64,000 nt of DNA, taken from NCBI GenBank assembly GCA_019695345.1, contig JAIBAE010000017.1:563-64562 (forward strand). Direction: 5' to 3'. A model generated the notes under the pieces. The model was not told the DNA's origin. It saw only the letters and a program-made list of their open reading frames with translations, and searched no databases. Origin of the DNA: Bacteroidota bacterium (GTDB lineage: Bacteria > Bacteroidota > Ignavibacteria > Kapaibacteriales > NICIL-2). Position 1 is the first letter of the stretch. Every line of letters begins with the position of its first letter. This document shows positions 2,575-55,182 of the stretch, one piece after another. Both the position numbers and the translations under genes were made by a program.

Positions 2575-2652
2575 ACACCCTCTCGCGATGTTGTAACACT
2601 TTTTCCCGACCGGGTTGCGGCGCAGTATGGCTCGCTTCGGCAGAGGTGGGAA
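2575..2652 (+). repeat. Family-1 intergenic repeat, copy A (3' half only)
   Basis: cccgaccgggttgcggcgcagtatggctcgcttcggcagaggtggg matches the 3' halves of copies B to E. Confidence 0.7.
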
Positions 2653-2666
2653 ACATGATTTGTATT

Positions 2667-3899
2667 TTACCCAAGTAGAGTTTTTTGTTTACGTAATGTT
2701 ATAACGGTAATCTCCGGCGGAATACCCACACGCACCGGAATTCCAACGGTTCCAAGCCCACGGTTAACATATAAATGTTGGTGCGCATCGGAATACAAAC
2801 CCGCCCATTGCTTGTACACAAACTGCGCCGGACTGACCTGTTTGCCAAAGAAATCCATTGCAAACTGCCCGCCGTGCGTGTGTCCGCTTAACATCAAATC
2901 TATTTGTGTTTTACCACGAATTTCCTTATCCCAAAATGTTGGGTCATGCGCCATAAGTATTGTTGGGTAATCTGGGATTGTTCCAATAAGCGCTGTAGGT
3001 AAATCGGCAAAGTTTTGTCCAAGCCCTGTGTTGTCGGTACCTATTAATTGCAGTACTTCGTTATCTATGGTAAACTGATGATTTTCATTTACCAAAAGTT
3101 TGATGCCACTATTTGTTACTATAGATTTGATTCTATCGTGGTCGGACTTTGAGGTGTAATGGTCGTGGTTGCCAAGCGAAGCCCACACACCCAAATCTGC
3201 TTTTAGTTTCTCCAGCTCTGGGCGAATAATTGCAAGTTCGTTCGATTGAAAGTTTACAAAGTCACCTGTTATCAACAGTAAGTCCGGTTTATGCGTTTCG
3301 ATTATTCTTCGTGCTTCCTGAAACGGGCGGTAATCGCGGAATGAACCTGAGTGAATATCAGATATTTGAATAATCTTAAAGCCATCGAATGCACTAGTGA
3401 GTTTTGGAAGTTCAAGATCATGGTAATACACTTCGATATTATCAACATTGGTCATTCCCCTTCCAATAATAAAGAACGGAACGGTGGCAATACTCCATGC
3501 TGTTGACTGAATTATTTTTCTGCGGGATTGGTTTGTTGTTTCAGGTTCATGTTGTGTTTTCTTTTTCACCAGTTTACGAACACCCAAATACAAAGCGTAT
3601 ACAATATCTTTACACACTAGGAATATAGCAATAGGAAGTTTTGGGATATACCACAATATGGTAACTATAAACAACGCATAAAGCCAATCATCCAAACGGG
3701 CTGTATTGCTGCGTTGGAATGAAACATATGGCGAGAGAAATAATAAGGTAATACTAATAATCCACGGCACACGCGAAACCCATTTGTTCCAACGCATGTT
3801 CTTAACAAACCTCTGCCACGATAACAAACAATAAACATCTATCAGAAACAGAATTACGGAAGAAGTTATAACAAACTTTAATAATTGATGAGAATCCAA
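2667..3899 (-). CDS. Membrane-anchored calcineurin-like metallophosphoesterase
   Basis: Several N-terminal transmembrane helices, then phosphoesterase motifs GDFVN, GNHDHY and GHTHGGQ. Confidence 0.65.
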   Translation of the reverse strand: MDSHQLLKFVITSSVILFLIDVYCLLSWQRFVKNMRWNKWVSRVPWIISITLLFLSPYVSFQRSNTARLDDWLYALFIVTILWYIPKLPIAIFLVCKDIVYALYLGVRKLVKKKTQHEPETTNQSRRKIIQSTAWSIATVPFFIIGRGMTNVDNIEVYYHDLELPKLTSAFDGFKIIQISDIHSGSFRDYRPFQEARRIIETHKPDLLLITGDFVNFQSNELAIIRPELEKLKADLGVWASLGNHDHYTSKSDHDRIKSIVTNSGIKLLVNENHQFTIDNEVLQLIGTDNTGLGQNFADLPTALIGTIPDYPTILMAHDPTFWDKEIRGKTQIDLMLSGHTHGGQFAMDFFGKQVSPAQFVYKQWAGLYSDAHQHLYVNRGLGTVGIPVRVGIPPEITVITLRKQKTLLG

Positions 3900-3969
3900 T
3901 GTATTTCCTATGTATCAACAATTCAAAACCTAAGCCGCCCCCACAGACGAATTACCTACCATTCATGTT

Positions 3970-4842
3970 TTACGTGCGAAGTGTAATAAACAACGCATCG
4001 GCTTCTGCTAAAATAACATCGGGTTGGCTTGCATACGCTATTTGTCCGTGAATGTAATTTTTCCTACCTTCAATTTTTTGCAATTTGGCAGATAAATACA
4101 GCAGCTCACCAATATTGATTGGTTTCCTGTACTTAACATTCAGCTGTGCTGTTGGTGCTTTTATTTGTAATCCGCTAAGCACTTTACCCAACGTTTCATC
4201 AAGCAATAATGCAGTGTAGCCGCCATGCATAATGTTCAGCGAGCCCATTAATCGGTTATCGGGTGTAAACCACGATTCAACACTATGTTCTTCTTTATCA
4301 AACAAAAACGAGAGCATTAATCCGTTTGGATTATCACGTCCGCAACCGGCACAACTGTTTCCAACTCGCGGGCGCATGAGTTGCATGTTTTCCGGAATAT
4401 GTAACGGTGGAATTACCTCCCAAAGCGTTGTGCCTTCTACGTTGTATGTGTACCAGTTTCCCCAGTGTTCTATGTTACGCGAGAGTTCGATAGCGGCATT
4501 TGGTACAATCCTGCCAAACTCACCCAGCGGTGCTTTGTGGTATAACACACCGTTTTCGCCAAAGCGTAAATCTTGCGGATGAAACTCCACCGAGTACGAT
4601 GGTGAATACCACAGTTTACCGTCTTCGTAATACGTAAACACAATTGGAGTATCGGCAACGGCAACGTAATTCCGTTCTCTTCCACAGGGCGAATAATACA
4701 TATAATCTGTACATTCCCCTGTATCATTCACACGGATATTTCTAAAGAAGACATCTAAAAATGTTTCATCTTCTAATATCGCACCTTCGTGAATCAAATT
4801 GCCTTTAGTATCAAGCGTTAAAAAGTAATTGCGTTCATTCAT
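3970..4842 (-). CDS. Hotdog-fold (PaaI-type) thioesterase domain protein with an N-terminal domain of unknown function
   Basis: C-terminal NIMHGGYTALLLDETLGKVL matches the PaaI/hotdog thioesterase signature. SD-like aaggag lies upstream of the ATG at 4842. Confidence 0.5.
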   Translation of the reverse strand: MNERNYFLTLDTKGNLIHEGAILEDETFLDVFFRNIRVNDTGECTDYMYYSPCGRERNYVAVADTPIVFTYYEDGKLWYSPSYSVEFHPQDLRFGENGVLYHKAPLGEFGRIVPNAAIELSRNIEHWGNWYTYNVEGTTLWEVIPPLHIPENMQLMRPRVGNSCAGCGRDNPNGLMLSFLFDKEEHSVESWFTPDNRLMGSLNIMHGGYTALLLDETLGKVLSGLQIKAPTAQLNVKYRKPINIGELLYLSAKLQKIEGRKNYIHGQIAYASQPDVILAEADALFITLRT

Positions 4843-4894
4843 ACAGTTCTCCTTTCTTCAATCACAAAATACATTGAAACCGTAATCTGGTAAT

Positions 4895-4985
4895 GCGTTA
4901 TTTTTGATTGAGATGATTTGTAGCTATCGCATGACGGCACCAAATGTTTTGTAACAAGAAAGCGTTGCCAATGCCGATAAGTACC
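4895..4985 (-). repeat. Family-2 bipartite element (box A + box B), 70 nt upstream of the 3970..4842 gene
   Basis: Minus strand reads cttatcggcattgg ...(spacer)... tttggtgccgtcatgcgatagctacaaatcat. A diverged forward-strand partner copy lies at about 5030-5092 upstream of glmS. Confidence 0.6.
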
Positions 4986-5156
4986 TTACTAATTACATCA
5001 CGGTTATCGTGTTTTTGTAACAGAATGTTCTTTCCCGCAGTACAAGGTTTTGCTTTTAATTAACACTGGGTACGGCTTGGAACAAAAAATCTTCTCAACT
5101 TTTGCCCGTCTGTGGCGAAATACTACTTTGAATTTTACTTAAACTAAGAGGTTACC

Positions 5157-6989: not shown

Positions 6990-7007
6990 ATAACTTTGGG
7001 TTACCGT

Positions 7008-7168
7008 TCAACAACTTCACAGCGTTCAGCGCGCAAACCCTGTGCGAGCCAAGCGTTGAAATTCAGAACCACTTCTACAATTACATTAAATAAAAAAACA
7101 GCGCCATTGAACCGTTCGTTACCGACCGGGTTGCGGCGCTTGAGAGTTGCTTCGGCAGAAGTGGGAAT
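7008..7168 (+). repeat. Family-1 intergenic repeat, copy B
   Basis: cagcgcgcaaaccctgtgcgagcc ... aaccgttcgttaccgaccgggttgcggcgc ... gcttcggcagaagtggg. Confidence 0.75.
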
Positions 7169-7174
7169 CAACTT

Positions 7175-7666
7175 TTATCTTCCAAACATTTCTGCCTTTT
7201 TATTGCGCATCATGATGAGCTTTTGCAGTACTTCGGGGAATTTGATTTCGAACATCATCAGTTTAGCATATTGCTCTGCATTTAGCAGTGGTTTAAGCAT
7301 GGTAATACGCTCGCGAGCGGCTGATAACCAAACATCATAATATTTGAGAACTATTTCGGTTTTGTTGGTAATATCAGATTGACTGCCTTTGTTCTTAACG
7401 GTTTGATTTAAGTCTTTGATTGCATCATCGAGTGCCTTTTTAGCAGCGTCAATTTTCTTTTGACCGGCGTTGTACTGAACCAAGAATTTATCAGCGACAT
7501 CAGAACTGAGGTCGAGCATATCAAGCAACTTCGCTTTTTTGAGTTGCATTACACGTTCTTTAATTTGCTCGCCACGTGTTTCATCTTGCATCATGTCCTG
7601 TGCAAATGATGAAGTAATCAACATACAGCTAACAAATAGCGTTAATAGTGTATTAACCGGCGTCAT
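7175..7666 (-). CDS. Secreted periplasmic protein, possibly Spy/CpxP-like; third gene of the ECF sigma operon
   Basis: Signal peptide, helical and Lys/Gln-rich, LxxxQ-type motifs. Overlaps the upstream anti-sigma gene by 14 nt. Confidence 0.4.
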   Translation of the reverse strand: MTPVNTLLTLFVSCMLITSSFAQDMMQDETRGEQIKERVMQLKKAKLLDMLDLSSDVADKFLVQYNAGQKKIDAAKKALDDAIKDLNQTVKNKGSQSDITNKTEIVLKYYDVWLSAARERITMLKPLLNAEQYAKLMMFEIKFPEVLQKLIMMRNKKAEMFGR

Positions 7667-8336
7667 CGCTTACCTCCTGAATCATTTTTTCAATGTCATC
7701 TATATCGGCTTTGTTCTGCAATTGAATTCGCTCTGTTTCTATAAAGTCAGGATCAGGTTGGTCGGATGTGCTGCTTATAATACTCTCAGCAAGTAGCTCA
7801 TCGAGATTATCACTCAAATGTGCTGTATATGATAGCACCGAAGTTGCCTCGGCTGTAGGCGCACCAAGCGATGGTTCTGCTATACCATTCTGAACTGTTT
7901 GCATTACACTTGCATCATGCATCAATGCTTGCGAAATATCTTCATCGATACTTGCAACATGATTTGTAGATGCTGTTGTAAAACGAATAACAAGAATGAC
8001 GGCTGTAACACTTAATGCAATTGGAACAACTCTGCCAAATAGAATAGATGAAAAACTGCGCTTTGGTTGTGTAGCAATTTTTTGGTTTACATGAACGGAA
8101 AGATTCCGCGCCTGATAATCAATTGTTGAAGTGATTTTCTGTTTGTCAATCTTTGTAAACACAGCGGAAATACTTTCGACTTCTTGCAGTAATTCGGGAA
8201 ACTGCTGTAATGATTGACGCACAACTTCTGCCTGCTCAGTGGGTAAATTCCCAAGGGCATAATCTGCAAGCAGTTCCTCAAGTTGTTCTCGGTTATAAAG
8301 ATTATTCGTTTGCATAACCAAACTCACGTAAATCAA
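7653..8336 (-). CDS. Anti-sigma factor (single-pass membrane)
   Basis: Immediately downstream of, and overlapping, the ECF sigma gene. Cytoplasmic N-terminal helix, one TM segment (VVPIALSVTAVILVIRF), periplasmic C-terminus. Confidence 0.5.
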   Translation of the reverse strand: MIYVSLVMQTNNLYNREQLEELLADYALGNLPTEQAEVVRQSLQQFPELLQEVESISAVFTKIDKQKITSTIDYQARNLSVHVNQKIATQPKRSFSSILFGRVVPIALSVTAVILVIRFTTASTNHVASIDEDISQALMHDASVMQTVQNGIAEPSLGAPTAEATSVLSYTAHLSDNLDELLAESIISSTSDQPDPDFIETERIQLQNKADIDDIEKMIQEVSDDAG

Positions 8337-8913
8337 ACATATTTGAATTTTTTAGAATCTTAGCCAGTTTTTGGATTGCCTGGAAGTAGTTGGCTTTTAA
8401 CCCACCAATACTTGTTCCAAGTATTTCGGAAATTTCTTCGTACGATAGCTCATCAAAATACCGAAGGCAAAATGTCTCGCGTTGTTTATCGGGTAATGTT
8501 TCAAGGATTTGGTAAAATTTATCCGAAAAATCCTTGTCCATCATCTGGCGTTCCGGGGTTGCAATATCCGATTCAACTTCCATTTCTTCGCCATCTTCGT
8601 TCTTAAACCATGCTAAGAACTTTTTCTTCCTACGCATAGTGGAGCACACGTTTACCGTTATTCTATATAACCATGTTGTTATGGAGCTTTCTCCTTTAAA
8701 ACTTGGTAATGCTTTTAAGGCACGGATAAACACTTCCTGTGCGGCATCATCAGCATCATCGTGGGCATTATTCAGTTGGCGCAGTGCCAACGAATACACA
8801 AAACGCTGATGTTTACGTACAAACTGAGTAGCGGCGATTTCTCTGTTGCCGTTAATATATTCTTCTATCAGAACGGTATCGTCGTACGGTAATGCCAATG
8901 AAAATGTTCCCAT
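8302..8913 (-). CDS. ECF (sigma-70 family) RNA polymerase sigma factor
   Basis: Region 2 (AQEVFIRALKALPSF) and region 4 helix-turn-helix (EEISEILGTSIGGLKANYFQAIQKL). Confidence 0.85.
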   Translation of the reverse strand: MGTFSLALPYDDTVLIEEYINGNREIAATQFVRKHQRFVYSLALRQLNNAHDDADDAAQEVFIRALKALPSFKGESSITTWLYRITVNVCSTMRRKKKFLAWFKNEDGEEMEVESDIATPERQMMDKDFSDKFYQILETLPDKQRETFCLRYFDELSYEEISEILGTSIGGLKANYFQAIQKLAKILKNSNMFDLREFGYANE

Positions 8914-9003
8914 ATATGCCTCACTCTAATTTTTGTTGGTGAGACGGTGACTTATACCCTTGGGTTTAAAGGCAATCTTAATTATTTCCAATAATTACAC
9001 CCC

Positions 9004-9036
9004 AAAATAAAAAAGTCAGGCAAATGCCTGACTTTT
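9004..9036 (-). terminator. Rho-independent terminator after ybjN
   Basis: Perfect hairpin aaaagtcaggc-aaat-gcctgactttt followed by a T-run on the minus strand. Confidence 0.6.
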
Positions 9037-9057
9037 AATCTTTCCATTAGCTCATTC

Positions 9058-9519
9058 TTATTCAATATCAACAATATCGCTAGCACGTTTACCACCAGCC
9101 ATGGCAACGATTTCATCGTCATAATGGTCGGCAATTACTGCGGTAGCGGCAACAGCTGTAATCAGTTCGCTACGGTCCATGGTAGCACCCGTAATAGATT
9201 GTGTAAATACAATTGTGTTATCGAATAGTAATCCAAATCCGCCAAAGTGTAATTCCGCATTTTTTCTTAGCAAAAAGCTCATTAACTCTGGTGTAATTGT
9301 AGCACCTACAACAACATGCGCTGTGCATTCAACAACACAATCAAGTTCCGTAAAACTGCGAACAACAATCATAACACGTGTAGAACCACGGCTAACGGCA
9401 AAAGCACCATTCTCAAATGCAACATAATCCGGAAATGAATCCATCAACAGCTTTTCTACTCTGCCGCGTGTTTCTGTAAGTAAATTTTCGCCGGTAGTAC
9501 CAAATTTCAAATCTTCCAT
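9058..9519 (-). CDS. YbjN-domain protein (putative sensory transduction regulator fold)
   Basis: About 150 aa cytoplasmic protein with a YbjN-like sequence pattern. Directly downstream of pspA. Confidence 0.45.
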   Translation of the reverse strand: MEDLKFGTTGENLLTETRGRVEKLLMDSFPDYVAFENGAFAVSRGSTRVMIVVRSFTELDCVVECTAHVVVGATITPELMSFLLRKNAELHFGGFGLLFDNTIVFTQSITGATMDRSELITAVAATAVIADHYDDEIVAMAGGKRASDIVDIE

Positions 9520-9528
9520 AAAACCTCC

Positions 9529-10206
9529 TTATTCATTAGATGGGGGTAATTGTAAATTAGCTTTCAGTTTCTCTAACGCTGCATCTACACTTGCGCTTGA
9601 ACCAAGTTGTTTAAACTCTTGTTCAAGAGAAGTGTTTTCGCCTGCTAATTGTTCAAATGCAGATGCTTCAGCTTCAACTTTTTCGATTTTACCCTCGAAC
9701 TTATCAAATTTACTGAATGCATCAGAGCCAACTCCACTAAACGACTGCGCTATTTCTTTTTGCGCTTTTGCCGCCTGCGAGCGAGCTATCAATGTGCTTT
9801 GGCGCGAGCGAGCTTCTTCCAGCTTATTCTTAATTTGGTCTAACTGACCGCGAAGTTTATCCGAAGTTGCTTTAGCTTGAGCATAAATTGGTTCTAAATC
9901 GGCAGCATTCCTGTCCGAAACAATTTTCTTTTCTAAAGCGGCTTTGGCCAAATCTTCTCTTCCTGCCTGAAGAGCTTGTGTTGCCTTTGCCTGCCAATCG
10001 GCACTCTGATCTTTTGCCTTAGCAAGTTTGCGCTCAAGCGACTTTTCATTTGCTATAGCATTAGCTACTGCAAGAGTGTTGCGGTTAACCGCTTCTTCCA
10101 TTTCCAAGACCATCTGTTTCAACATTTTTTCAGGGTCTTCGGCTTGGTCTAACGCATCGTTAACGTTAGCCTTAAAGATGTCGGATATTCTAGAGAATAT
10201 TCCCAT
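9529..10206 (-). CDS. pspA: PspA/IM30 family (phage-shock protein A)
   Basis: N-terminus MGIFSRISDIFKANVNDALDQAEDPEKMLKQ is the canonical PspA/Vipp1 start. Long coiled-coil. Confidence 0.85.
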   Translation of the reverse strand: MGIFSRISDIFKANVNDALDQAEDPEKMLKQMVLEMEEAVNRNTLAVANAIANEKSLERKLAKAKDQSADWQAKATQALQAGREDLAKAALEKKIVSDRNAADLEPIYAQAKATSDKLRGQLDQIKNKLEEARSRQSTLIARSQAAKAQKEIAQSFSGVGSDAFSKFDKFEGKIEKVEAEASAFEQLAGENTSLEQEFKQLGSSASVDAALEKLKANLQLPPSNE

Positions 10207-10397
10207 CGTTGTACCTCATATATAATTGTGAGTGAAATACGCGGATGATAACGCCGCTTGAGAATCTTTGTTGCAAAAATCGTAAAAAATATTTCCCTGA
10301 AGTAGAAAAGTATTCTTCCTGTTTACCTGCTCCGGGCTACGTTTTCCAAACAACGTCCGGTTTGCATAGACAGAACCTCACCGATTTACAACCATTT

Positions 10398-11228: not shown

Positions 11229-11257
11229 ATCAGGTTGATGTTAGTATAAGAATGAGG

Positions 11258-11332
11258 ATTTGTCCCGCAGACTGAGGTTAACTTTTGAATGCTACGTTAA
11301 GGTGCGGTCAGGCGATAGCAAACAAAACTATT
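11258..11332 (+). repeat. Family-2 bipartite element
   Basis: tgtcccgcagac ... ggtgcggtcaggcgatagcaaacaaaactatta. The tail ends on the lpxA TAA stop (complement). Confidence 0.7.
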
Positions 11333-14388: not shown

Positions 14389-14451
14389 TCGGAATTTGTT
14401 CAGGGTTAATGTGAGTACTAATTTGCCTTTGGTTCTACCAACAATTATTCC

Positions 14452-18523: not shown

Positions 18524-18528
18524 CACCT

Positions 18529-19101: not shown

Positions 19102-19291
19102 TACTATTATGCTAACGCAATCCGCGCCACAACATATTTAAGTACAAACCATTCTCTTGCGGGAAAAAAACCTCCGCAACTACAAATCCAACATCATGAA
19201 ACGATATGTTGTTAGGCTAACGTTCTCTCCTGCAACGCATTGTTATGTTGTTTTTCAACAGTACGGAGCAGTCATGCGATAGCAACAAAAA

Positions 19292-21649
19292 CTACCGTAA
19301 CTCCACTTGTGTTACACCTGCATCGCCTTCTCCAATACTACCCAAACGATATGACGCAACTTGCGGATGCTCGCGAAGAAACTCGTGGATTGCCTGACGC
19401 AACGCACCTGTTCCCTTACCGTGTATGATAGTTAGAAAAGGAACGTTACCGGCAATTGCATTATTGAGAAACACGTCAATGTTAGCCATTGCCTCGCCGG
19501 CGCGTTGTCCACGCACATCAATAGAGGTTGCTGCCGATAAATTCAGATTCTGTCCACTTGCAGCACGGGTGCGTTGAACATTTTTAATATCGGAATGTCG
19601 TAACTCCTGAACGTTCACTTTGAACTTAATTCCATTGAAATCAATGAGTGCTTGTTTGCCATCCAATTCAACAATCACACCAACCTGATTAGAATCCCGA
19701 ATAACAACCGAATCACCCAACACGAACTCTTCGCTCTGATTATTGGAGCTTTTTGGCGCAAACTGCTCAACGTTACTTATGATTTCCTTGCGGAGTTTCT
19801 CAATATCTTGTTTTACCTCGCCAACCGGACGAGACTGTTCACGAATTTCTTTAATGGCTTGCTCAACTTGCGATTGCGCTTTACGTACAACTTCTGCTGC
19901 CTCACTGTTCGCAGTCTCCATGAGTTTACGGTATTTTACTTTAAAGTCATTAAAACGTTGCTCATATTCTTTACGCTTTTTCTCCGCTTCCGATAGTTCT
20001 TTAAATGTATCCATACGAAGTTTCTCTGCTTCCATACGATACTTTTGCATCACAGCTATACTCTGTTCAAGTTCGCTGTGTTTATCGCCCAGGTATTCCT
20101 TAGCGCGGTTCATCACAACTTCCGGCAACCCAACAGATTTTGCTAACTCAAATGCGTAAGAATTTCCAGGAACACCTTGCAAAAACTTATACGTCGGAAC
20201 AAGCTTCTCAGGATTAAACTCAAGCGACGCATTTGCTATTTTCTCTCGGCTTAATGCATAACTTTTTAGTGAGCTTTGGTGCGTTGTAACCACAAAGAAT
20301 GCTCCGCGTTCTATAAAAGAATCTAACACTCCGCTTGCTAAAGCACTACCTTCTGTGGGGTCGGTACCGGAGCAAATTTCATCAACTAACACCAATGCAT
20401 CCGGCGCACAAAACGAGAGGATATCTCGTAGGCGTAGAATCTGTGATGAAAAGGTTGATAAATCAGATTCAATACTTTGGTGGTCTCCAATTGCCGCAAG
20501 CAAACGCCGTGGATTTGTAGTACACTCCCCTAACGGAAAAATACCCGATAACGCCATAGCAATGTTTAACCCAATGCTTTTCATGGCAACCGATTTCCCT
20601 CCGGCGTTCGGACCGGAAATAAGATGTCCGCACGTTTTAATATCAAAGGTCACTGTAAGTGGAATAACATTCTTTGCACCTTTGGATTGCAGTAACAACG
20701 GATGAAAGATATTCCGCAGTTCTACTAACGGTTCATCAACAATACGAGGTTTAATACCACCATTTTGAATTGCATACTGTGCCTTTGCATGAATTGTATC
20801 CAACAACGTTAACGTGGATAAACTTCGTTCAATATCATACGCTACTCCGCCAATCTCACCTGTTAATGTAGAAAGAATACGAACAATCTCTCGTTGCTCT
20901 TCGCTATGTAGCAGAGAGAGTTCGTTGTTCATTTCAAATGTTTCCATTGGCTCTAAAAATACAGTAGAACCCGATGACGAAACACCATGAATCAAACCCG
21001 GAATAGCACGTTTACTTTCTACCTTTAACGGAAGTACAAATCTGCCTTCACGTTGTGTAACGTATTCTTCTTGCAACAAATCATCCTCGCCAAGTTTGGC
21101 AAGTATCTTTTGTAAACGGTTACGAAGCTTTGCACTGGTTTCAAAAATGTCGGCACGAATACGTTGTAGTTCTTTTGTAGCGTTATCACGGATATTTCCG
21201 GTTTCATCAATTGCATCGGTAATATGCTTTTCCAATAATCTGTTTTCGTACAGATTATTACTCATTTCGGTAAGACCGGGCATAGCATCACGCTGGCGAA
21301 CAAAGAAGGCAATTAACCTACGCGAGGATTGCAGTACTTCCAGCACATCTAAAATCTCACCCGATTGCAAAAAGGCACCGGCAATCAACGACTTCTGTAT
21401 CTGTGCAGAAATATCTTCCGTGCGTTCCATTGGGAACGTTTCACCACTTAGCAGTAACGTGTACATTTCATACACACGTTCATGTTCGGCTTGTAACCAC
21501 GGCACATCATTCAACGGAACAATGTCCAACAGGTGTTCTTTTCCAAGCACCGTCATGCAATGCCGTGCAACAATCTCCCGCACTTTCGGGAATTCAACTT
21601 CTTCTAACGATACACGTAGTAATTCTTCTTCCTGTTTAACGCTGTCCAT
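19292..21649 (-). CDS. mutS2: Endonuclease MutS2
   Basis: MutS domain III/ATPase (GPNAGGKS Walker A), long coiled-coil, C-terminal Smr domain. 785 aa. Confidence 0.9.
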   Translation of the reverse strand: MDSVKQEEELLRVSLEEVEFPKVREIVARHCMTVLGKEHLLDIVPLNDVPWLQAEHERVYEMYTLLLSGETFPMERTEDISAQIQKSLIAGAFLQSGEILDVLEVLQSSRRLIAFFVRQRDAMPGLTEMSNNLYENRLLEKHITDAIDETGNIRDNATKELQRIRADIFETSAKLRNRLQKILAKLGEDDLLQEEYVTQREGRFVLPLKVESKRAIPGLIHGVSSSGSTVFLEPMETFEMNNELSLLHSEEQREIVRILSTLTGEIGGVAYDIERSLSTLTLLDTIHAKAQYAIQNGGIKPRIVDEPLVELRNIFHPLLLQSKGAKNVIPLTVTFDIKTCGHLISGPNAGGKSVAMKSIGLNIAMALSGIFPLGECTTNPRRLLAAIGDHQSIESDLSTFSSQILRLRDILSFCAPDALVLVDEICSGTDPTEGSALASGVLDSFIERGAFFVVTTHQSSLKSYALSREKIANASLEFNPEKLVPTYKFLQGVPGNSYAFELAKSVGLPEVVMNRAKEYLGDKHSELEQSIAVMQKYRMEAEKLRMDTFKELSEAEKKRKEYEQRFNDFKVKYRKLMETANSEAAEVVRKAQSQVEQAIKEIREQSRPVGEVKQDIEKLRKEIISNVEQFAPKSSNNQSEEFVLGDSVVIRDSNQVGVIVELDGKQALIDFNGIKFKVNVQELRHSDIKNVQRTRAASGQNLNLSAATSIDVRGQRAGEAMANIDVFLNNAIAGNVPFLTIIHGKGTGALRQAIHEFLREHPQVASYRLGSIGEGDAGVTQVELR

Positions 21650-21734
21650 AAATTCTTTTAAATATTAATTGGGTACCGTATGTGCAAACTCACGCCCGCG
21701 TACTGCGGCAACCCTGTCCGCACCAACCCTTGGT

Positions 21735-22182
21735 TTATGCTAAAATCTTTTTAACTAATGTTTGAATAATTGTTCCGTCGGCTTTACCTTTTAAATTTTT
21801 CATAGCAACACCCATCACTTTACCAAAGTCACCGGCACCTGTTGCACCAACCTCTGCTACAATTGCACGAAGTTCTGCTTCTACTTCTTCTTCACTTAAT
21901 TGTTTAGGCATAAATTCCATTAAAATTGCAAGCTCTTGTTTTTCTTTATCTGCAAGTTCAGTTCTACCATATTGTTCGTATTGAGCAATAGAGTCTTTAC
22001 GCTTTTTAACACCTGCATTTACAATGCGTAAGAATTCTTCTTCACCTAAAGCTTTATCTGTTCCACTCTTTTCAAACTCAATAATCCCAGCCCTAACCGA
22101 GCGGAGTGTTTCCAAACGGATAGAATCTTTAGAAATCATTGCTTGCTTAATTCCATCGTTTATTACAGCTACAAAATCCATA
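21735..22182 (-). CDS. GatB/YqeY-domain protein
   Basis: Likely start is the ATG at 22182 (MDFVAVINDGIKQA...), preceded by AGGAG. The ORF-track 5' extension is not conserved-looking. Confidence 0.8.
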
Positions 22183-25433: not shown

Positions 25434-25521
25434 TTTCAGCAAGAGCAATCATCAAAGCAACAATCCACACTGTGCATGGACAGAACCTCTCTCGCGATGT
25501 TTGGCAGTTATCGCAGATGGG

Positions 25522-25592
25522 ATTTTCTTCGGCAAGAAGCGATTGTTACTAAAGAGTGGTTAGGTGCCGTCTGCGGTAGCAGAAAATAAAAA
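25522..25592 (+). repeat. Family-2 bipartite element (variant)
   Basis: ttcttcggcaagaagc ... ggtgccgtctgcggtagcagaaaataaaaa. Confidence 0.55.
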
Positions 25593-30564: not shown

Positions 30565-30645
30565 AAGGTTCTGTCCCGCAACTGTAAGGGTGTAATTAGG
30601 GAGTATGGTTGGTGCGGTTTGCGATAGCATAAACAATTACTGTGA
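30565..30645 (+). repeat. Family-2 bipartite element
   Basis: ctgtcccgcaactg ... ggtgcggtttgcgatagcataaacaattac. The tail ends on the xerC/D stop (complement). Confidence 0.7.
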
Positions 30646-31548: not shown

Positions 31549-31759
31549 TGTGGAAAAGTATATTCGATACTGCACTCCAAATTTACAACAACCGCGCCAG
31601 AATAAGCTAAAAATGGCGTATCTTGCGTATCATTTTCGGTTTATTTTTATTGGGTTGGGTACCGCAACGCAAATCCCGAAACTTAAGCGCGGCAACCCTG
31701 TCCGAACCGACCCGCCTGCAAAGGCTAATTTTCATGCAGCATACTATAGCTTTGGCACA

Positions 31760-33202: not shown

Positions 33203-33247
33203 AACATTTTCAGAAATATGTGTCATTTGAGATATTGACACAGACAA

Positions 33248-33325
33248 GGTTTTATCCCGCACAACAAGGTTCTTAATTGAAAATTGGTTTGGTGCGGTCT
33301 GGCGATAGCAAAGAAAATTATTTAC
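33248..33325 (+). repeat. Family-2 bipartite element, 20-45 nt upstream of the 33346 start codon
   Basis: ttatcccgcacaac ... ggtgcggtctggcgatagcaaagaaaattattt. Confidence 0.7.
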
Positions 33326-40827: not shown

Positions 40828-41010
40828 CCCTCCTCTGCCGAAGCACTCATTACAGCGCGCAGACCCAGCGCGAGCCCACCCTTCTGCTTCGCGGATTACA
40901 TTTTCAATACGTTTCCCAAAAATTAAGATTAACAGACTTCAATGCGATGCTACAAGGTTCTATCCCGACCGGGTTACGGCGCAGAACGGTTGCTACGGCT
41001 GTGGTGGGAA
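40828..41010 (+). repeat. Family-1 intergenic repeat, copy C (full length)
   Basis: 5' end ctctgccgaagc ... cagcgcgcagacccagcgcgagcc ... cccgaccgggttacggcgc ... 3' end gctacggctgtggtggg. The ends are inverted repeats. Confidence 0.8.
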
Positions 41011-41090: not shown

Positions 41091-41654
41091 TTGATGAAAG
41101 ACCTGGGAACATACACAGACGCTGCTCTATTTGCCCTATTAATGGCAAAGTCGAACGAACGCGAAAAAGCGTTTGCAGAGTTGTATTCGCGGTATTCGCA
41201 GAAGGTGTATTTGTATTGTTCTAAGGTTATGGGCAACCGCCAAGACGCAAACGACTTGTTTCAGGAAACCTGGATGAAGTTTCATAATGCAGCTGTTAAA
41301 GCAGAAGTTGTTGTTGAGAATGTTGGTGGTTATTTATTCAGAATTGCCCGGAACCTGTGCCTAAACAAGAAACGAAGTCAACAAAATGTTCACGTTACAT
41401 TCGAAGAGTTTTACGGTAGCACACACGACACCACATACGAGCAAAAAGAGTTTAACGAATTACTGAACAGAGCACTGGATTTACTTGACGTTGATTACCG
41501 CGAAGCTTTTGTGTTACATGAAATTGAAGGACTTCCCTACGATGAAATTTCGGTTATTACGGGCGATACAGTAGCGGCATTAAAAAACCGGGTGTGGCGT
41601 GCCCGTAAACAAATACGCCAGTTTCTTTCACCGTTTCTAATTGATGTACAATAA
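41091..41654 (+). CDS. ECF sigma factor
   Basis: Region 2 (DANDLFQETWMKFH) and region 4 HTH (EISVITGDTVAALKNRVWRARKQI). Confidence 0.85.
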   Translation: MMKDLGTYTDAALFALLMAKSNEREKAFAELYSRYSQKVYLYCSKVMGNRQDANDLFQETWMKFHNAAVKAEVVVENVGGYLFRIARNLCLNKKRSQQNVHVTFEEFYGSTHDTTYEQKEFNELLNRALDLLDVDYREAFVLHEIEGLPYDEISVITGDTVAALKNRVWRARKQIRQFLSPFLIDVQ

Positions 41655-41675
41655 GCAACAGTATGTTGCAAACGT

Positions 41676-42908: not shown

Positions 42909-42910
42909 CA

Positions 42911-43651
42911 ATGAAATATGTTCAACAGACCATTTTCATCTCAGTACTTACAACAGTTTGTTTACTAATACAAAGCTGTACGTCAAGCGAGGATTTATTA
43001 ACTCCCAGAGTTATTACAGAATTAACCAACGGTATTGATACTATGAGCGTAGTATCCATTCAAGTATCAACAACACTAAATGATATAAGGCAAGATGTTG
43101 GAACAAAAGCAAGCAACTATACGGCTGTAGTGGTAAAGAAAGATTCGTTACTCTTTGTAAACCTAACAGCGGATTTTCAATCAACAGAACAACGTACATT
43201 ACCAATCTCGCTACTACAATCTAAACTAAAAACAGGACTTCGCTTGGCTTCAGGTAAAAGTTATTCAAACAATGGGAATAGTAACGATACTACATATACT
43301 ACATTTAATTTTCATGTTACATATTTTACATACGATACAACCACGCGGGACAGTCTGTTTGTAAAAGGACTAAAAAGAGATTCTACACAACAAAAAATAG
43401 ATACTCTTTGGGATAGTGTTAAAGTAACTAAAGTTGTAAGTGTACTAAACAGCGATTCAGTAAATGTTAGGCCATCCACCGTTAGTTCCGGAGTAGATAA
43501 CGCACTAATGACGATGGCACACTATACCACAGAAAAACGTATTCTTTGCACATTAACCTACACAACACAAGGCGATAAGAACCTATATACTCGTTTGTAT
43601 AATAACAACGCAACTCTGACGATATCCTTCGAGATATTTTATAAAGAGTAG
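42911..43651 (+). CDS. Lipoprotein, third gene of the ECF sigma module
   Basis: Lipobox LLIQSC. Ser/Thr-rich. Confidence 0.45.
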   Translation: MKYVQQTIFISVLTTVCLLIQSCTSSEDLLTPRVITELTNGIDTMSVVSIQVSTTLNDIRQDVGTKASNYTAVVVKKDSLLFVNLTADFQSTEQRTLPISLLQSKLKTGLRLASGKSYSNNGNSNDTTYTTFNFHVTYFTYDTTTRDSLFVKGLKRDSTQQKIDTLWDSVKVTKVVSVLNSDSVNVRPSTVSSGVDNALMTMAHYTTEKRILCTLTYTTQGDKNLYTRLYNNNATLTISFEIFYKE

Positions 43652-43659
43652 GTGTGTTC

Positions 43660-43815
43660 CCCTTCTGTGCCGAAGCTACTGGCCAGCGCGCAGACCCGGC
43701 GCGAACCGCTCCACTTTCTATCGCAATTATACCTGATGTTTAAAACAACTGCGCCGCTGTACCGTTCGTTTCCGACCGGGTTGCGGCGCATGAGATTTGC
43801 TTCGGCTTGTGCCGG
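43660..43815 (+). repeat. Family-1 intergenic repeat, copy D (full length)
   Basis: ctgtgccgaagc ... cagcgcgcagacccggcgcgaacc ... ctgcgccgc ... tccgaccgggttgcggcgca ... gcttcggcttgtgccgg. Confidence 0.8.
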
Positions 43816-43844
43816 AAATCTACATTATTTAACTACCTCTATAT

Positions 43845-47632: not shown

Positions 47633-47694
47633 GCTATCGCAAGCGGTTCCAAACAACTAATTTCAAAACAGCAATCATTACACCGGACAGTATC

Positions 47695-48186: not shown

Positions 48187-48197
48187 ACAATACAAAT

Positions 48198-48740: not shown

Positions 48741-48759
48741 TTTTTACACAATGATTGCC

Positions 48760-48848
48760 AGTGCGGGACAGTGAGATACTGTCCCGCGATAAGCTTGTGT
48801 TTTGTTATTGTGTTATGGCGCGGTCTGCGATAGCAAAATATTATTCCA
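48760..48848 (+). repeat. Family-2 bipartite element with an extra perfect hairpin at box A
   Basis: gcgggacagtgagatactgtcccgcgat ... ggcgcggtctgcgatagcaaaatattatt. The tail ends on the czcB stop (complement). Confidence 0.7.
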
Positions 48849-49992: not shown

Positions 49993-49999
49993 AAATGTT

Positions 50000-52900
50000 T
50001 TAATGTGCGTTATAATAATCCAGTTCAATTGCGGCATTGTTATACTCTTCAACTGCATCGTAAAAAGCATTTTCTACAGAGTTAGTATTTGTAAACATTG
50101 TACTCCATTCTATGTAGGAGACATCGCCAGTTTGTAATTGTTTCGTAATAGAATTCCGAATTGATTGATTTTGTTGAAGTATTGTTTGGTTATAAGTATC
50201 AATCATACTTTTTGCGTTACGATACCGCAACAAAGCAAGTTGTTTGTGAGTAGTAAATTTAAGAAGAGCTTGTTTGTACTCCATCTCGGCTATGGTTTTT
50301 TGAATTCCGGCTGCCTCAATTTTTGATTGTTGAGCAACGAAGAAAAGCGGCAACGATATTCCAATTCTATAAGAAGTAAAGAATGTTGATGATGAGTTAT
50401 AATAAGGCATGTTGTCATCACTCGTCATCCAACCTCTGAACGATTGTTTAGAAACACCCAGGGTTAATTGTGGAAGTAACTTTGACTTTTCAACTCCAAG
50501 TACAGCATCATTTCTGTTGATATCAGCTGTAAATACTTTGAGTAAGGGATGTTCAGTTGAATCAGTACTATTAGGTTCATATTCAAAAGTTTGATGAACA
50601 ACACTATCTTGTATATTATCGTTCACCATTTGCCTTAATCTTAGTAGCAACAATTGCTTTGATGTTTGCAGCCGTTGCACCATAAGTTCAGATTGTTTTT
50701 TAAGTACAGAACTCTGAATTTTCATAGTTGTAGGAGTTTCTCCTAACTCAGCGCGTTGTGTTTCTTTTTCAAGCACCTTTTCATAGACTGAATCTATCTT
50801 CATCTGAAGCTCAAGCCTTCGATGTAACACAAGTACTGAGTAAAATGCCTTGCGAATTTCCATTGCCAAATCAAGTTCTGCTTGTGCCTGTTGCAATTTC
50901 TGAATCTCCTTAGAATACAACAATGCATCTTTTGCATACGTAAAGAATGTAGGAAATGGTAATGTTTGCGTAAACGACATACGAATATCATTATAGGCAG
51001 AATTTACATTTCCGTATTCTACATCAATAAGTGAGTGTGGAACTTCCCATGCAGTACCAAACAGCACGGTACTGTGTTCAACATTCTTCCTTGCAATTTG
51101 TAATTGTATATTCTTGTTTTTTGCTACTTGAATTAGTGAATCCAAAGTTGTGTTGGGTGTGGCTGAAGCTGTATTAGTTATAAAAAAGAAGAATACCAGT
51201 ATAATTACATTAATAGCTGTTTGTTTTCTTCGTTGTCGTTTAAGATAAAACTGTTCCGCTAACCTATACAATATTGGCAACACAATTAAAGTTAGGAAAG
51301 TTGAGGATAATAGTCCGCCAATCACAACGGTTGCCAATGGACGTTGTACTTCGGCACCAGCCCCCTGCGATAGTGCCATAGGCATAAAACCTAACGAAGC
51401 AACTGCAGCTGTCATCAACACCGGACGTAGCCTTTGCGAAGCTCCCTTAATTACTAACGATATAAGTCGTTCATTCCGGAGTTTTCTTCTGTCGTACTCA
51501 GCAATCAATACAATTCCGTTTAGAACCGCAACACCAAAAAGAGCAATGAAACCAACTCCTGCCGAAATACTAAACGGCATACCTCTTATAACTAATGCAA
51601 ATATGCCACCAACAGCAGAGAGTGGTATAGCAGTAAATATCAACATTGCTAAACGAACTGATTTAAATGTAAAATACAATAGAACTATAATAAGTAACAA
51701 TGCTACAGGAACTGCAACAGCCAATCTGTTCTTAGCTTTGGTTAGGTTTTCGAACTGCCCCCCATACGTAATGGAATAACCTGGTGGTAAATGGATGTTA
51801 TCTTCTACTCTCTTTTGTACATCTTTCACCACACTTTCAACATCACGTCCACGGACATTGAATCCAACTATAATTCTTCGCCGAGCGGATTCTCGTTGAA
51901 TTTGATTTGGGCCGTTTACTAATCGCACATCAGCAAGTACTTGTAAAGGTATTTGCTGACCGTTGTAACTTGGAACTTGTAGAGTTCTAACCGCTTCTAT
52001 ACTTTGTTCAATATTTTTATTCGTTCGTATAACTAAGTCATATCTCTTTTCACCTTCGTATACTATTCCTGCCCCTATACCTGCATATAATGCACTTACT
52101 GTTCTGTTTGCTTCTTCAACTGAAATTCCATATTGTGAAATAGCATTTCGGTTATAAGAAACTACTATCTGAGGCAAACCCGTTACTTGTTCAACATATA
52201 ACTCACAAGCACCCGGTATTGAAGCGGCAATACCACCAATTTGTTGTGAGTACTTTGCAAGTGTGTCTAAATCTTCACCAAATACTTTACATACAATATC
52301 TTGTCTGGCACCGGTCATTAACTCGTTAAACCTCATTTGAACCGGGAATTGAAATCCAAACGAAATGCCTGGTATTTCCTCAATTGTTGCACTCATTTTT
52401 GCTGATAGTTCTTCAAATGATGATGCTGAAGTCCATTCGTGTTTATCTTTCAGGATTATCATCATATCTGCTGCCTCTATGGGCATTGGGTCTGTTGGAA
52501 TTTCTCCGGAACCAATTTTTGTAACAACTTTTATCACTTCCGGGAATTTATTCTTCAAAGTTTGGGCTGCCTTTTGTGTTACTTCAATTGTTTGACTCAG
52601 CGAGCCACCTGTCATAATTCTGGTGTCGACAGCAAAGTCACCTTCTTCTAATTCAGGTATAAATTCACCACCTAAACTAAATAGAACTACCAAACTGACT
52701 ATAAACGCTGCTCCAATGCTACCAAGTACAAACACAGGTCTGCGAATAGCCCATTGTAACGATGGTATGTACTTCTTTTCAATGAACAACATCATGATAT
52801 CAGCAAATGTTTTTTTGTGATGCAACCGCTTATCAAGAACCAGCGATGTTATCATTGGTACATATGTAAGAGATAATAAAAAAGCACCCAAAACAGCAAA

Positions 52901-54382
52901 ACATACCGTTTGTGCCATAGGTTTGAACATCTTCCCTTCTATTCCAACAAGTGTTAAAATTGGTAGATATACAATCAGTATTATCACTTGCCCAAATACA
53001 GCAGAGTTCATCATAGTTGTGGCAGCTGTCCTAACTTGTTTATTCATTTCAGCTGTGTCTATGAGTAATGTATCAACTGGAAGTGCGGGTTGAAATTCAA
53101 TTGAATGGCGTTTTGTAAATGAATGTAAAACGTGCATTACCGATTCAACTATTATCACAGCACCATCTATTATCAAACCAAAATCTAATGCACCTAGCGA
53201 CATCAAATTTCCAGACACACCAAACAGGTTCATCATGATAACAGCAAACAACATAGAAAGTGGTATCACTGATGCTACTACCAAACCTGCACGTAAGTTG
53301 CCCAGAAAAAGAACAAGAATAAAAACAACAATCAAAGCGCCTTCCAGTAGATTTGTTTCTACTGTAGAAATAGCATTGTTTACCATCTTAGTTCTATCAA
53401 GAAATGGCTCAATTTCTACTCCTTCCGGAAGTGACTTCTGGATTTCTGCGATTCGTTGTTTTACATTCTTAATAGTTTGCGAAGAGTTGCCTCCCTTAAT
53501 CATCATTACTATTGCGCCTGCAACTTCACCATAATCTGTCTGATGCATCGCTCCATACCTCACTGCTGTCCCTAAACGGATGTCGGCAATATCCTTTACC
53601 AACAATGGTATGCCGTCAACAGTTTTTACAAGTGTATTTTCTATTTCTTCTTTTGAATGTAACAATCCTTCCGTGCGGATAAACAGTGCCATAGAATTGC
53701 GTTCTATGTATGCACCACCGGCATTTTGATTATTAGTATTCAATACCGAATACAACTCGGATAAAGTAATATTATGGCTTTTTAGTTTATCTGGATTAAC
53801 GGCAACTTCATATTGTTTAACGCCACCGCCAAAGCTACTTACATCTGCTACTCCTTCGGTACCGAGTAATTGTTTACGTATAGTCCAATCCTGAATATCC
53901 CGCAATTCGGTTGGCGTATATTTCCCTTCATATCCTTTTTTGGCTTTTACAGAATATTGATATATCTCGCCTAAACCGGTTGATACAGGACCTAATTCAG
54001 GAGTGCCTAAATACGCCGGAATCTGTTGCTGTAGTTGAATCAAACGTTCACTTACCTGTTGTCGTGCCCAATACACATCTGTTTCATCGTTGAATACTAT
54101 GGTAACCAACGATAACCCAAACCGTGAAAAAGAGCGCAGCTCTGTTTTTCCGGGAATGTTTACTATCGCTTGTTCAATGGGAAACGTTATTAACCGTTCT
54201 ACCTCCGGTGCCGCCAACGAAGGCGACACCGTGATAATCAACACCTGATTATTAGTAATATCAGGTACTGCATCTATAGGTAGTTGGGTTAACGAATAAC
54301 TTCCAAATGCAACAAGGGCCAGCACCAATAAACCAATAACTAACTTATTCTCAACGGAAAATCTAATTATACCGGCAAACAT
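50000..54382 (-). CDS. czcA: Heavy-metal-efflux RND pump (CzcA/CusA family) fused to a C-terminal TolC/CzcC-like outer-membrane factor
   Basis: Residues 1 to about 1040 form a 12-TM HME-RND permease. A hydrophobic signal-like segment (INVIILVFFFFITNTASA) follows. Then about 420 aa with outer-membrane-factor coiled-coil repeats in one continuous frame. Confidence 0.8.
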   Translation of the reverse strand: MFAGIIRFSVENKLVIGLLVLALVAFGSYSLTQLPIDAVPDITNNQVLIITVSPSLAAPEVERLITFPIEQAIVNIPGKTELRSFSRFGLSLVTIVFNDETDVYWARQQVSERLIQLQQQIPAYLGTPELGPVSTGLGEIYQYSVKAKKGYEGKYTPTELRDIQDWTIRKQLLGTEGVADVSSFGGGVKQYEVAVNPDKLKSHNITLSELYSVLNTNNQNAGGAYIERNSMALFIRTEGLLHSKEEIENTLVKTVDGIPLLVKDIADIRLGTAVRYGAMHQTDYGEVAGAIVMMIKGGNSSQTIKNVKQRIAEIQKSLPEGVEIEPFLDRTKMVNNAISTVETNLLEGALIVVFILVLFLGNLRAGLVVASVIPLSMLFAVIMMNLFGVSGNLMSLGALDFGLIIDGAVIIVESVMHVLHSFTKRHSIEFQPALPVDTLLIDTAEMNKQVRTAATTMMNSAVFGQVIILIVYLPILTLVGIEGKMFKPMAQTVCFAVLGAFLLSLTYVPMITSLVLDKRLHHKKTFADIMMLFIEKKYIPSLQWAIRRPVFVLGSIGAAFIVSLVVLFSLGGEFIPELEEGDFAVDTRIMTGGSLSQTIEVTQKAAQTLKNKFPEVIKVVTKIGSGEIPTDPMPIEAADMMIILKDKHEWTSASSFEELSAKMSATIEEIPGISFGFQFPVQMRFNELMTGARQDIVCKVFGEDLDTLAKYSQQIGGIAASIPGACELYVEQVTGLPQIVVSYNRNAISQYGISVEEANRTVSALYAGIGAGIVYEGEKRYDLVIRTNKNIEQSIEAVRTLQVPSYNGQQIPLQVLADVRLVNGPNQIQRESARRRIIVGFNVRGRDVESVVKDVQKRVEDNIHLPPGYSITYGGQFENLTKAKNRLAVAVPVALLLIIVLLYFTFKSVRLAMLIFTAIPLSAVGGIFALVIRGMPFSISAGVGFIALFGVAVLNGIVLIAEYDRRKLRNERLISLVIKGASQRLRPVLMTAAVASLGFMPMALSQGAGAEVQRPLATVVIGGLLSSTFLTLIVLPILYRLAEQFYLKRQRRKQTAINVIILVFFFFITNTASATPNTTLDSLIQVAKNKNIQLQIARKNVEHSTVLFGTAWEVPHSLIDVEYGNVNSAYNDIRMSFTQTLPFPTFFTYAKDALLYSKEIQKLQQAQAELDLAMEIRKAFYSVLVLHRRLELQMKIDSVYEKVLEKETQRAELGETPTTMKIQSSVLKKQSELMVQRLQTSKQLLLLRLRQMVNDNIQDSVVHQTFEYEPNSTDSTEHPLLKVFTADINRNDAVLGVEKSKLLPQLTLGVSKQSFRGWMTSDDNMPYYNSSSTFFTSYRIGISLPLFFVAQQSKIEAAGIQKTIAEMEYKQALLKFTTHKQLALLRYRNAKSMIDTYNQTILQQNQSIRNSITKQLQTGDVSYIEWSTMFTNTNSVENAFYDAVEEYNNAAIELDYYNAH

Positions 54383-54394
54383 GTTTTCCCCTTT

Positions 54395-54940
54395 TTATTT
54401 ATTATCATCGTCATCATCATCTTTACCATTTTCTTTTCCATTTTCTTGTTGTGGCGCAGTACCATTTTCCCCTTGCTGTATGCCTGGGGCTTGGTTTACT
54501 CCCGTTCTAATTTCAGTATGGCGTATCTGTCCACCAAGGTAACCGGTTCTTGCCATTGCAACACAAGTTACAACAGAAAGTACTGCAACACCATAAAGCA
54601 ATTTCTGCGCAACCGCTTCTTTATTCTTTGCAATTACTAAAGCACCTACAGCAGTTACAGCTGTTAACTCCATAAGAATCAATGCAAACTTTGCAGCATC
54701 TTCGTGTTCTTCTATAATCTGTTCAGAAACACCGGGTAAATTTTCAACTGATTCTTCGGCCGGTTCACCGGTTAAGAAAACAGGTATTGCAATCAACGCC
54801 ATGAGTATAATGATAACCGATGCTGTTTTTTGTAACGAAACATTTTTTCGTACAACAGCCCAAATCAACAACATAGTTGCAACAAGCAATCCTATAATTG
54901 GAAAATGGTTCAACAAAAGATGAATATGTGTGGCATTCAT
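54395..54940 (-). CDS. Small integral membrane protein with poly-Asp C-terminal tail
   Basis: Four TM helices. C-terminus ENGKENGKDDDDDDNK. SD-like ggaggat upstream. Confidence 0.45.
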   Translation of the reverse strand: MNATHIHLLLNHFPIIGLLVATMLLIWAVVRKNVSLQKTASVIIILMALIAIPVFLTGEPAEESVENLPGVSEQIIEEHEDAAKFALILMELTAVTAVGALVIAKNKEAVAQKLLYGVAVLSVVTCVAMARTGYLGGQIRHTEIRTGVNQAPGIQQGENGTAPQQENGKENGKDDDDDDNK

Positions 54941-54984
54941 AAATCCTCCAAAAAAAAATTATTATTCAATGATTTTACATGTGT

Positions 54985-55182
54985 TCCCGCATCTGCCGTA
55001 GCCATCCTTCAGCGCCGTCACACGGGCGGAGGATACCGTTACAGCATCGCGGACTTTAACGTAGAGTGTTTAATCTTGAGAAGTTAGTACAGGGTACTAC
55101 ATGCCTGAATAGTGCGACGCTGAACCGTTTGGTTCGCACCGGGTTGGCGCGCTGAAGCGTTGCTTCGGCATGTGAGCGTACA
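54985..55182 (+). repeat. Family-1 intergenic repeat, copy E (diverged)
   Basis: tctgccgtagcc ... cagcgccgtcacacgggcgg ... gaaccgtttggttcgcaccgggttggcgcgc ... gcttcggcatgtgagcg. Confidence 0.65.

Follow-up and report, generated by a model that had tools for sequence, protein, structure and literature searches.

Families of repetitive extragenic palindromic (REP) sequences consist of intergenic repeats in high copy number that occur as singletons and as inverted dimers, and some families are found exclusively as heterodimers whose units differ in their stem bases (PMC3733652). The two units of a dimer are separated by 20-100 bp spacers, often variable, and the dimers lie mostly downstream of open reading frames (ORFs), between convergent or tandem genes (PMC3733652). 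Copies persist for long periods at orthologous sites; REPs and their arrangements as bacterial interspersed mosaic elements (BIMEs) and REPINs are known from E. coli and Pseudomonas (PMC3733652, Di Nocera et al. 2013). Terminal inverted repeat (TIR) families with TIRYT transposases, which resemble the REP-associated tyrosine transposases (RAYTs), consist of longer repeats, other than simple palindromes, appearing in the manner of REPs as singles, dimers, and clusters, some of them with self-complementary tracts (PMC3733652, section 16). Here we describe an interspersed family of intergenic repeats (Family 1) in a 64,000-nt stretch of DNA from Candidatus Kapaibacterium, phylum Bacteroidota (positions 563 to 64,562 of contig JAIBAE010000017.1, assembly GCA_019695345.1; the whole stretch is called the window throughout). 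The window has a GC content of 40% and encodes type IX secretion system (T9SS) sorting domains as well as CheV, in agreement with this assignment. We read the family as lineage-specific and REP/BIME-like in organization, a reading to which we assign a probability of roughly 55%.

A preliminary description of the window, made from the sequence alone, had named five stretches (A to E) as copies of one element. All five are present where it had placed them and can be aligned with each other. Allowing up to one mismatch, the plus strand contains the core 18-mer CCGACCGGGTTGCGGCGC four times, compared with 0.03 occurrences expected by chance, and GCTTCGGCAG occurs 11 times at the same tolerance, compared with 1.5 expected. 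A hidden Markov model (HMM) built from the four long copies matched both strands of each copy together with related metagenome sequences, and after splitting the copies into arms every left arm could be aligned with the reverse complement of every right arm. The repeating unit is a module of ~80 nt rather than the element of 160-190 nt proposed earlier: stretches B to E each consist of two inverted modules and stretch A of one. Iterated nhmmer searches recovered nine modules in the window, four on the plus and five on the minus strand, in addition to two degenerate relics; one further module lies in the 8 kb past the window. In total, 31 distinct modules were collected from the window and 14 metagenome contigs. 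The single orientation formerly ascribed to all five stretches is lost at module level and, with modules facing both ways inside the same 64 kb, so is the notion of a strand-biased element; GC skew tracks gene orientation and yields no replication direction. The terminal sequences also had to be revised, the gcttcggcag 3' end reported for all five stretches, with one mismatch in C, being exact in A and B only (gctacggctg in C, gcttcggctt in D, gcttcggcat in E) and the start of D being gtgccgaagc, not ctgccgaagc.

From outside to inside, the module reads wwTTTG-GTTCCC-N6-GCCGAAGC-linker-GCG-(hairpin)-...-CGC, with an AT-rich outer edge ending in TTTG, the linker AAnCCTTCA after the box, and ~18 nt between the hairpin and CGC. 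The GCCGAAGC box is nearly invariant; the six bases between it and GTTCCC are hypervariable. Folding of 30 distinct modules with RNAalifold returned a weak consensus (-2.8 kcal/mol overall), whose sole covariation-supported structure is a small hairpin composed of 3 bp, a bulge, 1 bp, and the loop ACCCGG (columns 50-54/61-64). It follows the pattern C-S-S-bulge-N / N'-S-S-G with a conserved loop sequence A-C-C/A-C-G/A-G, is 99.2% paired, and shows covariation in three of its four pairs (GC17/CG13; CG16/GC13/UG1; AU21/CG5/GC2/UG1). None of 500 shuffles matched this support, and slid controls were paired to at most 45%. Four versions of the hairpin can be distinguished, namely a (CGC-N-A...T-GCG), b (CCG-T-C...G-CGG), c (CCG-C-A...T-CGG), and d (CGG...CCG), the last being a third stem combination found in both relics. 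The hairpin had been recognized in B, C, and D only; it is equally present in E and in all right arms, where the stem changes are compensatory (CCGTCACACGGGCGG in E5; CCGCAACCCGGTCGG in A3, B3, and D3). A second stem reported for the element (gcgccgc/gcggcgc) is real in B3, D3, and the module of metagenome contig L140, but it is not a family-wide trait.

Other candidate helices were invariant or badly paired. Among the rejected ones, the outer long-stem pairs (columns 45-46 with 86-87) are formed in just one third of the sequences, and a helix linking the box to the inner end shows 75% pairing, yet its central pair is broken in 27 of 30 sequences. Such a pattern, in which unpaired bases are conserved, a short stem covaries, and a neighboring stretch is hypervariable, would point to recognition by a protein and not to an autonomous RNA fold.

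The 31 modules include 11 pairs, all tail-to-tail, and ~10 solos. Without exception the pairs combine an a arm (CGC/GCG) with a b or c arm (CCG/CGG), an outcome that random pairing would produce with a probability of ~4e-4, given the 17:13 ratio of types observed. In the window, the left/right arms are a/c in pairs B, C, and D, and b/a in pair E. Spacers range from -16 to 134 nt, with sequences unrelated between pairs. The outer 19-20 nt of the pairs, indeed the whole arms, are complementary, i.e., terminal inverted repeats are present. The similarity between partner arms does not exceed that between random modules and in the core is even lower (0.55 vs 0.75). As the complementarity of partner arms likewise stays within that of random modules, the potential long hairpin of a pair is not the conserved entity, and it was ruled out as a selected structure. 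Target-site duplications, which the preliminary description had proposed to look for, were not found: no consistent direct repeat exists at any of the 11 pairs, whose flanks instead extend the inverted symmetry (TTTG / CAAA).

Every module lies between genes. For 17 of the 31, GTTCCC is located 0-78 nt (median ~13) after the stop codon of a same-strand ORF, and in several cases, e.g., glmS, cheV, hutH, hrcA, and a permease gene, the stop codon lies inside the AT-rich edge. Six solos, one of them outside the window, clearly border on a stop codon toward which their outer end is turned, and four solos occupy promoter regions and face away from the gene. A tendency of the modules toward a 3'-sense position is therefore suggested but short of proof. 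Modules B3, D3, and L140, all of type c, carry a 6-9-bp GC stem around the hairpin, with a stem interior of 26 nt, followed by a T-run, and owing to this arrangement they probably act as intrinsic terminators; a simple terminator scan is blind to stems with such large interiors.

Module C3 and the module at 2085-2172 of contig L151 are each found 75-100 nt upstream of an extracytoplasmic function (ECF) sigma factor gene and face away from it. Since the two sigma factor genes are paralogues (34% identity), these sites cannot serve as a second orthologous test, and the shared neighborhood may be coincidental, the genome having many ECF sigma genes.

One orthologous comparison was available. Contig L140 is syntenic with window positions 7092-10104 at 77% identity, and its module is identical to B3 at 75 of 88 positions overall and at 47 of 49 (96%) in the core. 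The four-fold degenerate sites of the five genes shared between the window and L140 are near saturation, with 137 of 287 (47.7%) identical, against which the conservation of the B3 core stands out at P ~3e-13. This excess indicates that the copies are held either by purifying selection or by homogenization with other copies. The synteny (L140 1-141 vs window 7092) ends exactly at the inner end of B3, and to its left L140 has neither glmS nor B5 but an AT-rich tract of 130 nt together with the outer end of a further module.

A metagenome scan with a composite pattern returned 71 loci, of which 14 hold full-length modules, 10 of them from one sample; the remaining loci match the pattern alone, at ~17 bits. 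In the searches made, these 14 contigs are the only place outside the source species in which the family was detected. Three scans of viral contigs contained no family member, and BLAST against plasmids and against phages gave no match. The comparison with Rfam suggested in the preliminary description yielded no match to any curated covariance model, neither at gathering score across the whole window nor, as far as relevant matches are concerned, in E-value scans of C, D, E, and the region of relic d2 and a second repeat family (Family 2, see below). Queried against proteins, the spurious ORF of pair B matched only itself, a protein listed for Candidatus Kapaibacterium sp. The earlier view is upheld in that the element is non-coding, lacks a conserved ORF, lies interspersed in multiple copies between genes, and is built from inverted repeats. 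A scan of a genome collection with the bare 18-mer CCGACCGGGTTRCGGCGC gave 100 chance matches in high-GC genomes and was discarded as unspecific. Sister strains that are 96-99.97% identical keep A3 and B to E within the recovered regions. Their short-read contigs repeatedly start or end inside modules (L002-L004, L186, L187, L189, L191, L192), as expected for a multi-copy dispersed repeat. The density of 10-12 modules in the 72 kb of readable sequence (the 64-kb window and 8 kb beyond) suggests, by extrapolation, several hundred modules per genome.

Table 1. Repeat modules, spacers, relics, and Family 2 copies in the window (box, position of GCCGAAGC or its variant; strand given as + or -).
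Feature	Position	Strand	Type	Box	Hairpin	Remarks	Context
Module A3, solo	2581..2660	-	c	2634-2641	CCGCAACCCGGTCGG 2606-2620	nhmmer 57-61 bits	start ~7 nt past stop of metallophosphoesterase gene 2667-3899(-)
Module B5	6991..7072	+	a, degenerate	decayed to ACAACTTC	CGCAAACCCTGTGCG 7032-7046	nhmmer 35-41 bits	start 2 nt beyond glmS stop codon (6989)
Spacer, pair B	7073..7091	.				AT-rich, unlike other spacers; minus strand gives T-run following B3 stem	
Module B3	7092..7177	-	c	7149-7156	7122-7136	long stem AGCGCC/GGCGCT then GTTTTTTTA; terminator-like	overlaps stop codon of gene 7175-7666(-); kept at orthologous site in L140
Relic d1	~21655..21745	+	d		CGGCAACCCTGTCCG 21706-21720	stem CGG/CCG; E=0.02	
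Relic d2	~31650..31735	+	d		CGGCAACCCTGTCCG 31690-31704		between xerC/D-like and aldehyde dehydrogenase genes
Module C5	40817..40900	+	a	40837-40844	CGCAGACCCAGCGCG 40858-40872		64 nt past stop of 1613-aa T9SS protein gene, canonical terminator in between
Spacer, pair C	40901..40939	.					
Module C3	40940..41017	-	c	GCCGTAGC 40992-40999	CCGTAACCCGGTCGG 40965-40979		74 nt upstream of ECF sigma factor gene 41091-41654(+), pointing away from gene
Module D5	43650..43731	+	a	43669-43676	CGCAGACCCGGCGCG 43689-43703		overlaps stop codon of gene 42911-43651(+)
Spacer, pair D	43732..43741	.				10 nt	
Module D3	43742..43826	-	c	43799-43806	43772-43786	8-bp stem TGCGCCGC/GCGGCGCA then GTTGTTTTA; folding z = -4.7	19 nt past cheV stop codon (43845)
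Module E5	54975..55057	+	b	GCCGTAGC 54995-55002	CCGTCACACGGGCGG 55015-55029		
Spacer, pair E	55058..55106	.					
Module E3	55107..55189	-	a	55162-55169	CGCCAACCCGGTGCG 55135-55149		start 4 nt past stop codon of gene 55193-55561(-)
Family 2 copy	4872-4945	-					
Family 2 copy	11256-11332	+					
Family 2 copy	19220-19296	+					
Family 2 copy	25518-25590	+					
Family 2 copy	30566-30640	+					
Family 2 copy	33246-33322	+					
Family 2 copy	48772-48840	+					
Family 2 copy	60925-60995	+					
Family 2 copy	62155-62236	-					

Besides the modules, the window hosts a second, unrelated intergenic repeat family. Family 2 comprises nine copies of ~75 nt, built from GGnTTTGTCCCGCA, ~35 AT-rich nt, and GGTGCGGTCTGCGATAGCAAA; in six of the nine copies, its GCGATAGCAAA end adjoins the stop codon of a gene on the minus strand, and it has no Rfam match. 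Some strains have, and others lack, a 4.97-kb segment with a 1409-aa PKD/Ig_7 gene (L190 4889-9862 vs L191 6869-6885, corresponding to window ~62237 and beyond 64000), its breakpoints being the inner end of a Family 1 module and the start of a Family 2 copy. Identity differs between the two sides of this junction (95.4% and 99.8%), suggesting that a recombination event had its boundary here. Next to the indel, outside the window (L190 4900-5230), lie two tandem copies of a third short structured repeat, ACCCnACCCAAAnCCTCCCCACAAGGGAGG ... CCCTCTCCTTnGGAGAGGGT.

The gene content gave three further observations. In the ORF listed at 31529-33202 (+), the aldehyde dehydrogenase domain begins only at residue 89; as the N-terminal extension crosses relic d2, the true start is probably near 31771. 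A single ORF of 1460 aa at 50000-54382 (-) joins an AcrB-type resistance-nodulation-division (RND) pump (residues 5-1042) to an OEP/TolC-like outer-membrane-factor domain (1278-1457), and this fusion is called likewise in sister assemblies. Within the large PKD/Ig gene, a 90-nt direct repeat with 71% identity (63278-63367 and 63512-63601) presumably represents a repeated protein domain.

We favor the REP/BIME-like reading because each of the organizational traits of the family, i.e., solos, inverted heterodimers, variable spacers, 3' position, and persistence, has been described for REP families (PMC3733652). According to this model, a trans-acting, single-copy enzyme, most likely of the HUH/Y1 (RAYT/TIRYT) type, would spread the modules or would once have spread them, reading hairpin and box on single-stranded or extruded nucleic acid. 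Retained copies could then serve the host at transcript 3' ends, the type c copies B3, D3, and L140 probably as terminators and others maybe as 3' stabilizing structures.

Several points weigh against this model. With ~80 nt, the module is two to four times longer than a REP (20-40 nt), and its proven stem consists of only 4 bp with a conserved 6-nt loop, where REPs form imperfect palindromes of 8-15 bp. The terminal GTAG/CGTC tag is absent, the outer end being wwTTTG-GTTCCC; GTAG is found only within the box, in three of 30 modules (GCCGTAGC) and CGTC in three inner ends only. Folded singly, the modules show no consistent advantage over shuffled sequence (z between +0.7 and -4.7). The orientation preference of the solos relies on small numbers, six against one, the opposite case being a relic. 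Comparison of the strains of 96-99.97% identity revealed neither gained nor lost modules, leaving current mobility unproven, and within the 72 kb that could be read of a 3.28-Mb genome and at the family loci, neither the 26 window ORFs scanned nor the surroundings of 16 family loci contain a transposase of any kind. Finally, the deep conservation of B3 could reflect host function alone, without mobility.

This last point leads to the explanation that we take most seriously beside our own, although we still judge it unlikely. The modules may be non-mobile cis elements maintained by the host, such as terminators, exonuclease blocks, or protein-binding sites, which arose and were kept locus by locus by selection. 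Such an origin agrees with a B3/L140 copy far more conserved than neutral sites, with the stability of all copies among strains, with the many modules beginning within ~15 nt of a stop codon in sense orientation, and with the GC stem and T-run of type c. It is hard to reconcile, without copying, with ~80 nt of common sequence behind such unrelated housekeeping genes as glmS, cheV, hutH, hrcA, and the permease gene. Moreover, C3, L113, L151, and the relics sit in promoter regions facing away from the gene, most modules are followed by A-rich sequence and not by a T-run, and short-read contigs break at modules as they do at dispersed repeats. A bolder variant, which we regard as distinctly improbable, sees in the modules the recognition sites of a dedicated host system of the Kapabacteria and not selfish DNA, amounting to a genome-wide and so far undescribed type of code for the marking or processing of 3' ends. 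A protein or paralogous pair would read the ACCCGG loop and the GCCGAAGC box on mRNA 3' ends or extruded DNA, deliberately telling apart the hairpin 'alleles' CGC/GCG and CCG/CGG. Such a system would account for pairs that strictly obey the a + b/c rule and for an orthologous copy that is so strongly constrained.

The preliminary description had named as one reading a MITE (miniature inverted-repeat transposable element), classically an internally deleted DDE-type insertion sequence whose long terminal inverted repeats would correspond to the arms. The small, non-coding, multi-copy, and intergenic nature of the element and the complementary outer ends of its inverted arms (TTCCC..CTGCCGAAGC / GCTTCGGCAG..GGGAA) speak for this reading. 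On the evidence of the 11 pairs we now rate it as very unlikely: direct repeats flank none of them, the interior differs in length and sequence from pair to pair and is thus unconserved, and the arms of each pair are always unlike in type and do not co-evolve. In addition, solo arms are common, and nothing similar turned up in the plasmid, phage, or viral collections. Least credible of all appears to us a set of small RNA genes transcribed inward from a Bacteroidota-type -7 box (TAnnTTTG) at the outer edge, with GCCGAAGC as the seed. A semi-conserved TTTG 1-3 nt before GTTCCC, perfect in B5 as TAACTTTG, would fit this idea, as would the 4 to 1 excess of G.U over A.C pairs on the outside-to-inside strand and the terminator-like stem and T-run in which type c modules finish. 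The spacing, however, puts most flanks off the -7 consensus, most modules have no terminator, no stable shared fold exists, and paired modules would transcribe into one another; several hundred copies of a single seed, the number extrapolated above, are implausible.

REP-type repeats are well studied in Proteobacteria, but tagged REP families are so far on record for only a few Bacteroidota species. The REP/BIME-like reading of Family 1 implies that an uncultured lineage builds the same population-level grammar on another, longer module, extending from solos, inverted heterodimers, and variable spacers to the 3'-end bias and persistence. With its two hairpin versions, conserved loop, and hypervariable stretch, the family offers a clean test case for finding the reader protein as well as for asking if such repeats act as replicators, as host tools, or in both ways. 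Two of its peculiarities are testable, namely that a arms pair strictly with b/c arms and that the orthologous copy is under strong constraint. On a practical level, the modules fragment short-read assemblies of these metagenome-assembled genomes (MAGs) and mark two observed rearrangement breakpoints.

Compared with other described systems, several resemblances are partial. BOX elements of Streptococcus pneumoniae combine three modules in the order A-B(n)-C, all in one orientation. The modular combination of sub-elements and the partly complementary end modules are common to both, whereas the Kapaibacterium family has a single module that exists in two or three versions and forms inverted pairs. 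Correia/NEMIS elements of Neisseria and ERIC sequences are likewise small, non-coding, and intergenic, with inverted ends and the possibility of a long hairpin when transcribed; they have a defined length, a conserved interior, and, in the case of Correia, a TA target duplication, in contrast to the variable interior, solo arms, missing duplication, and always unlike arms found here. Intrinsic terminators are matched by B3, D3, and L140 in the 6-9 bp GC stem and T-run right after a gene, but the stem of these modules encloses a 26-nt interior with the family hairpin, and most modules have no T-run. Integron attC sites (RYYYAAC ... GTTRRRY, in same-orientation arrays by intI) have ends of opposite polarity to GTTCCC...GGGAAC, and the modules are dispersed among housekeeping genes. 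The palindrome-associated transposable elements (PATEs) derived from IS200/IS605 have direct-orientation hairpins and a replication strand bias, whereas the hairpins of module pairs are inverted and modules face both ways.

The closest parallels remain the REP and TIR families. With the latter, the modules share their greater length, the departure from simple palindromes, and a REP-like organization, but the GGGGWSAS motif of several TIR families is absent and no flanked Y1 transposase gene was seen. From the REPs of E. coli and Pseudomonas they differ in the long conserved unpaired boxes (GTTCCC, GCCGAAGC), in the uncultured Bacteroidota lineage that hosts them, and in that no RAYT was found among the scanned ORFs and family loci. 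With these same REPs they have in common the coexistence of solos and inverted heterodimers, the variable spacers, the location downstream of ORFs, and the persistence at an orthologous site. In Family 1 we see a new sequence family that belongs to an established class of bacterial repeats, REP/BIME-like in its working and a member of neither a named REP nor a named MITE family.

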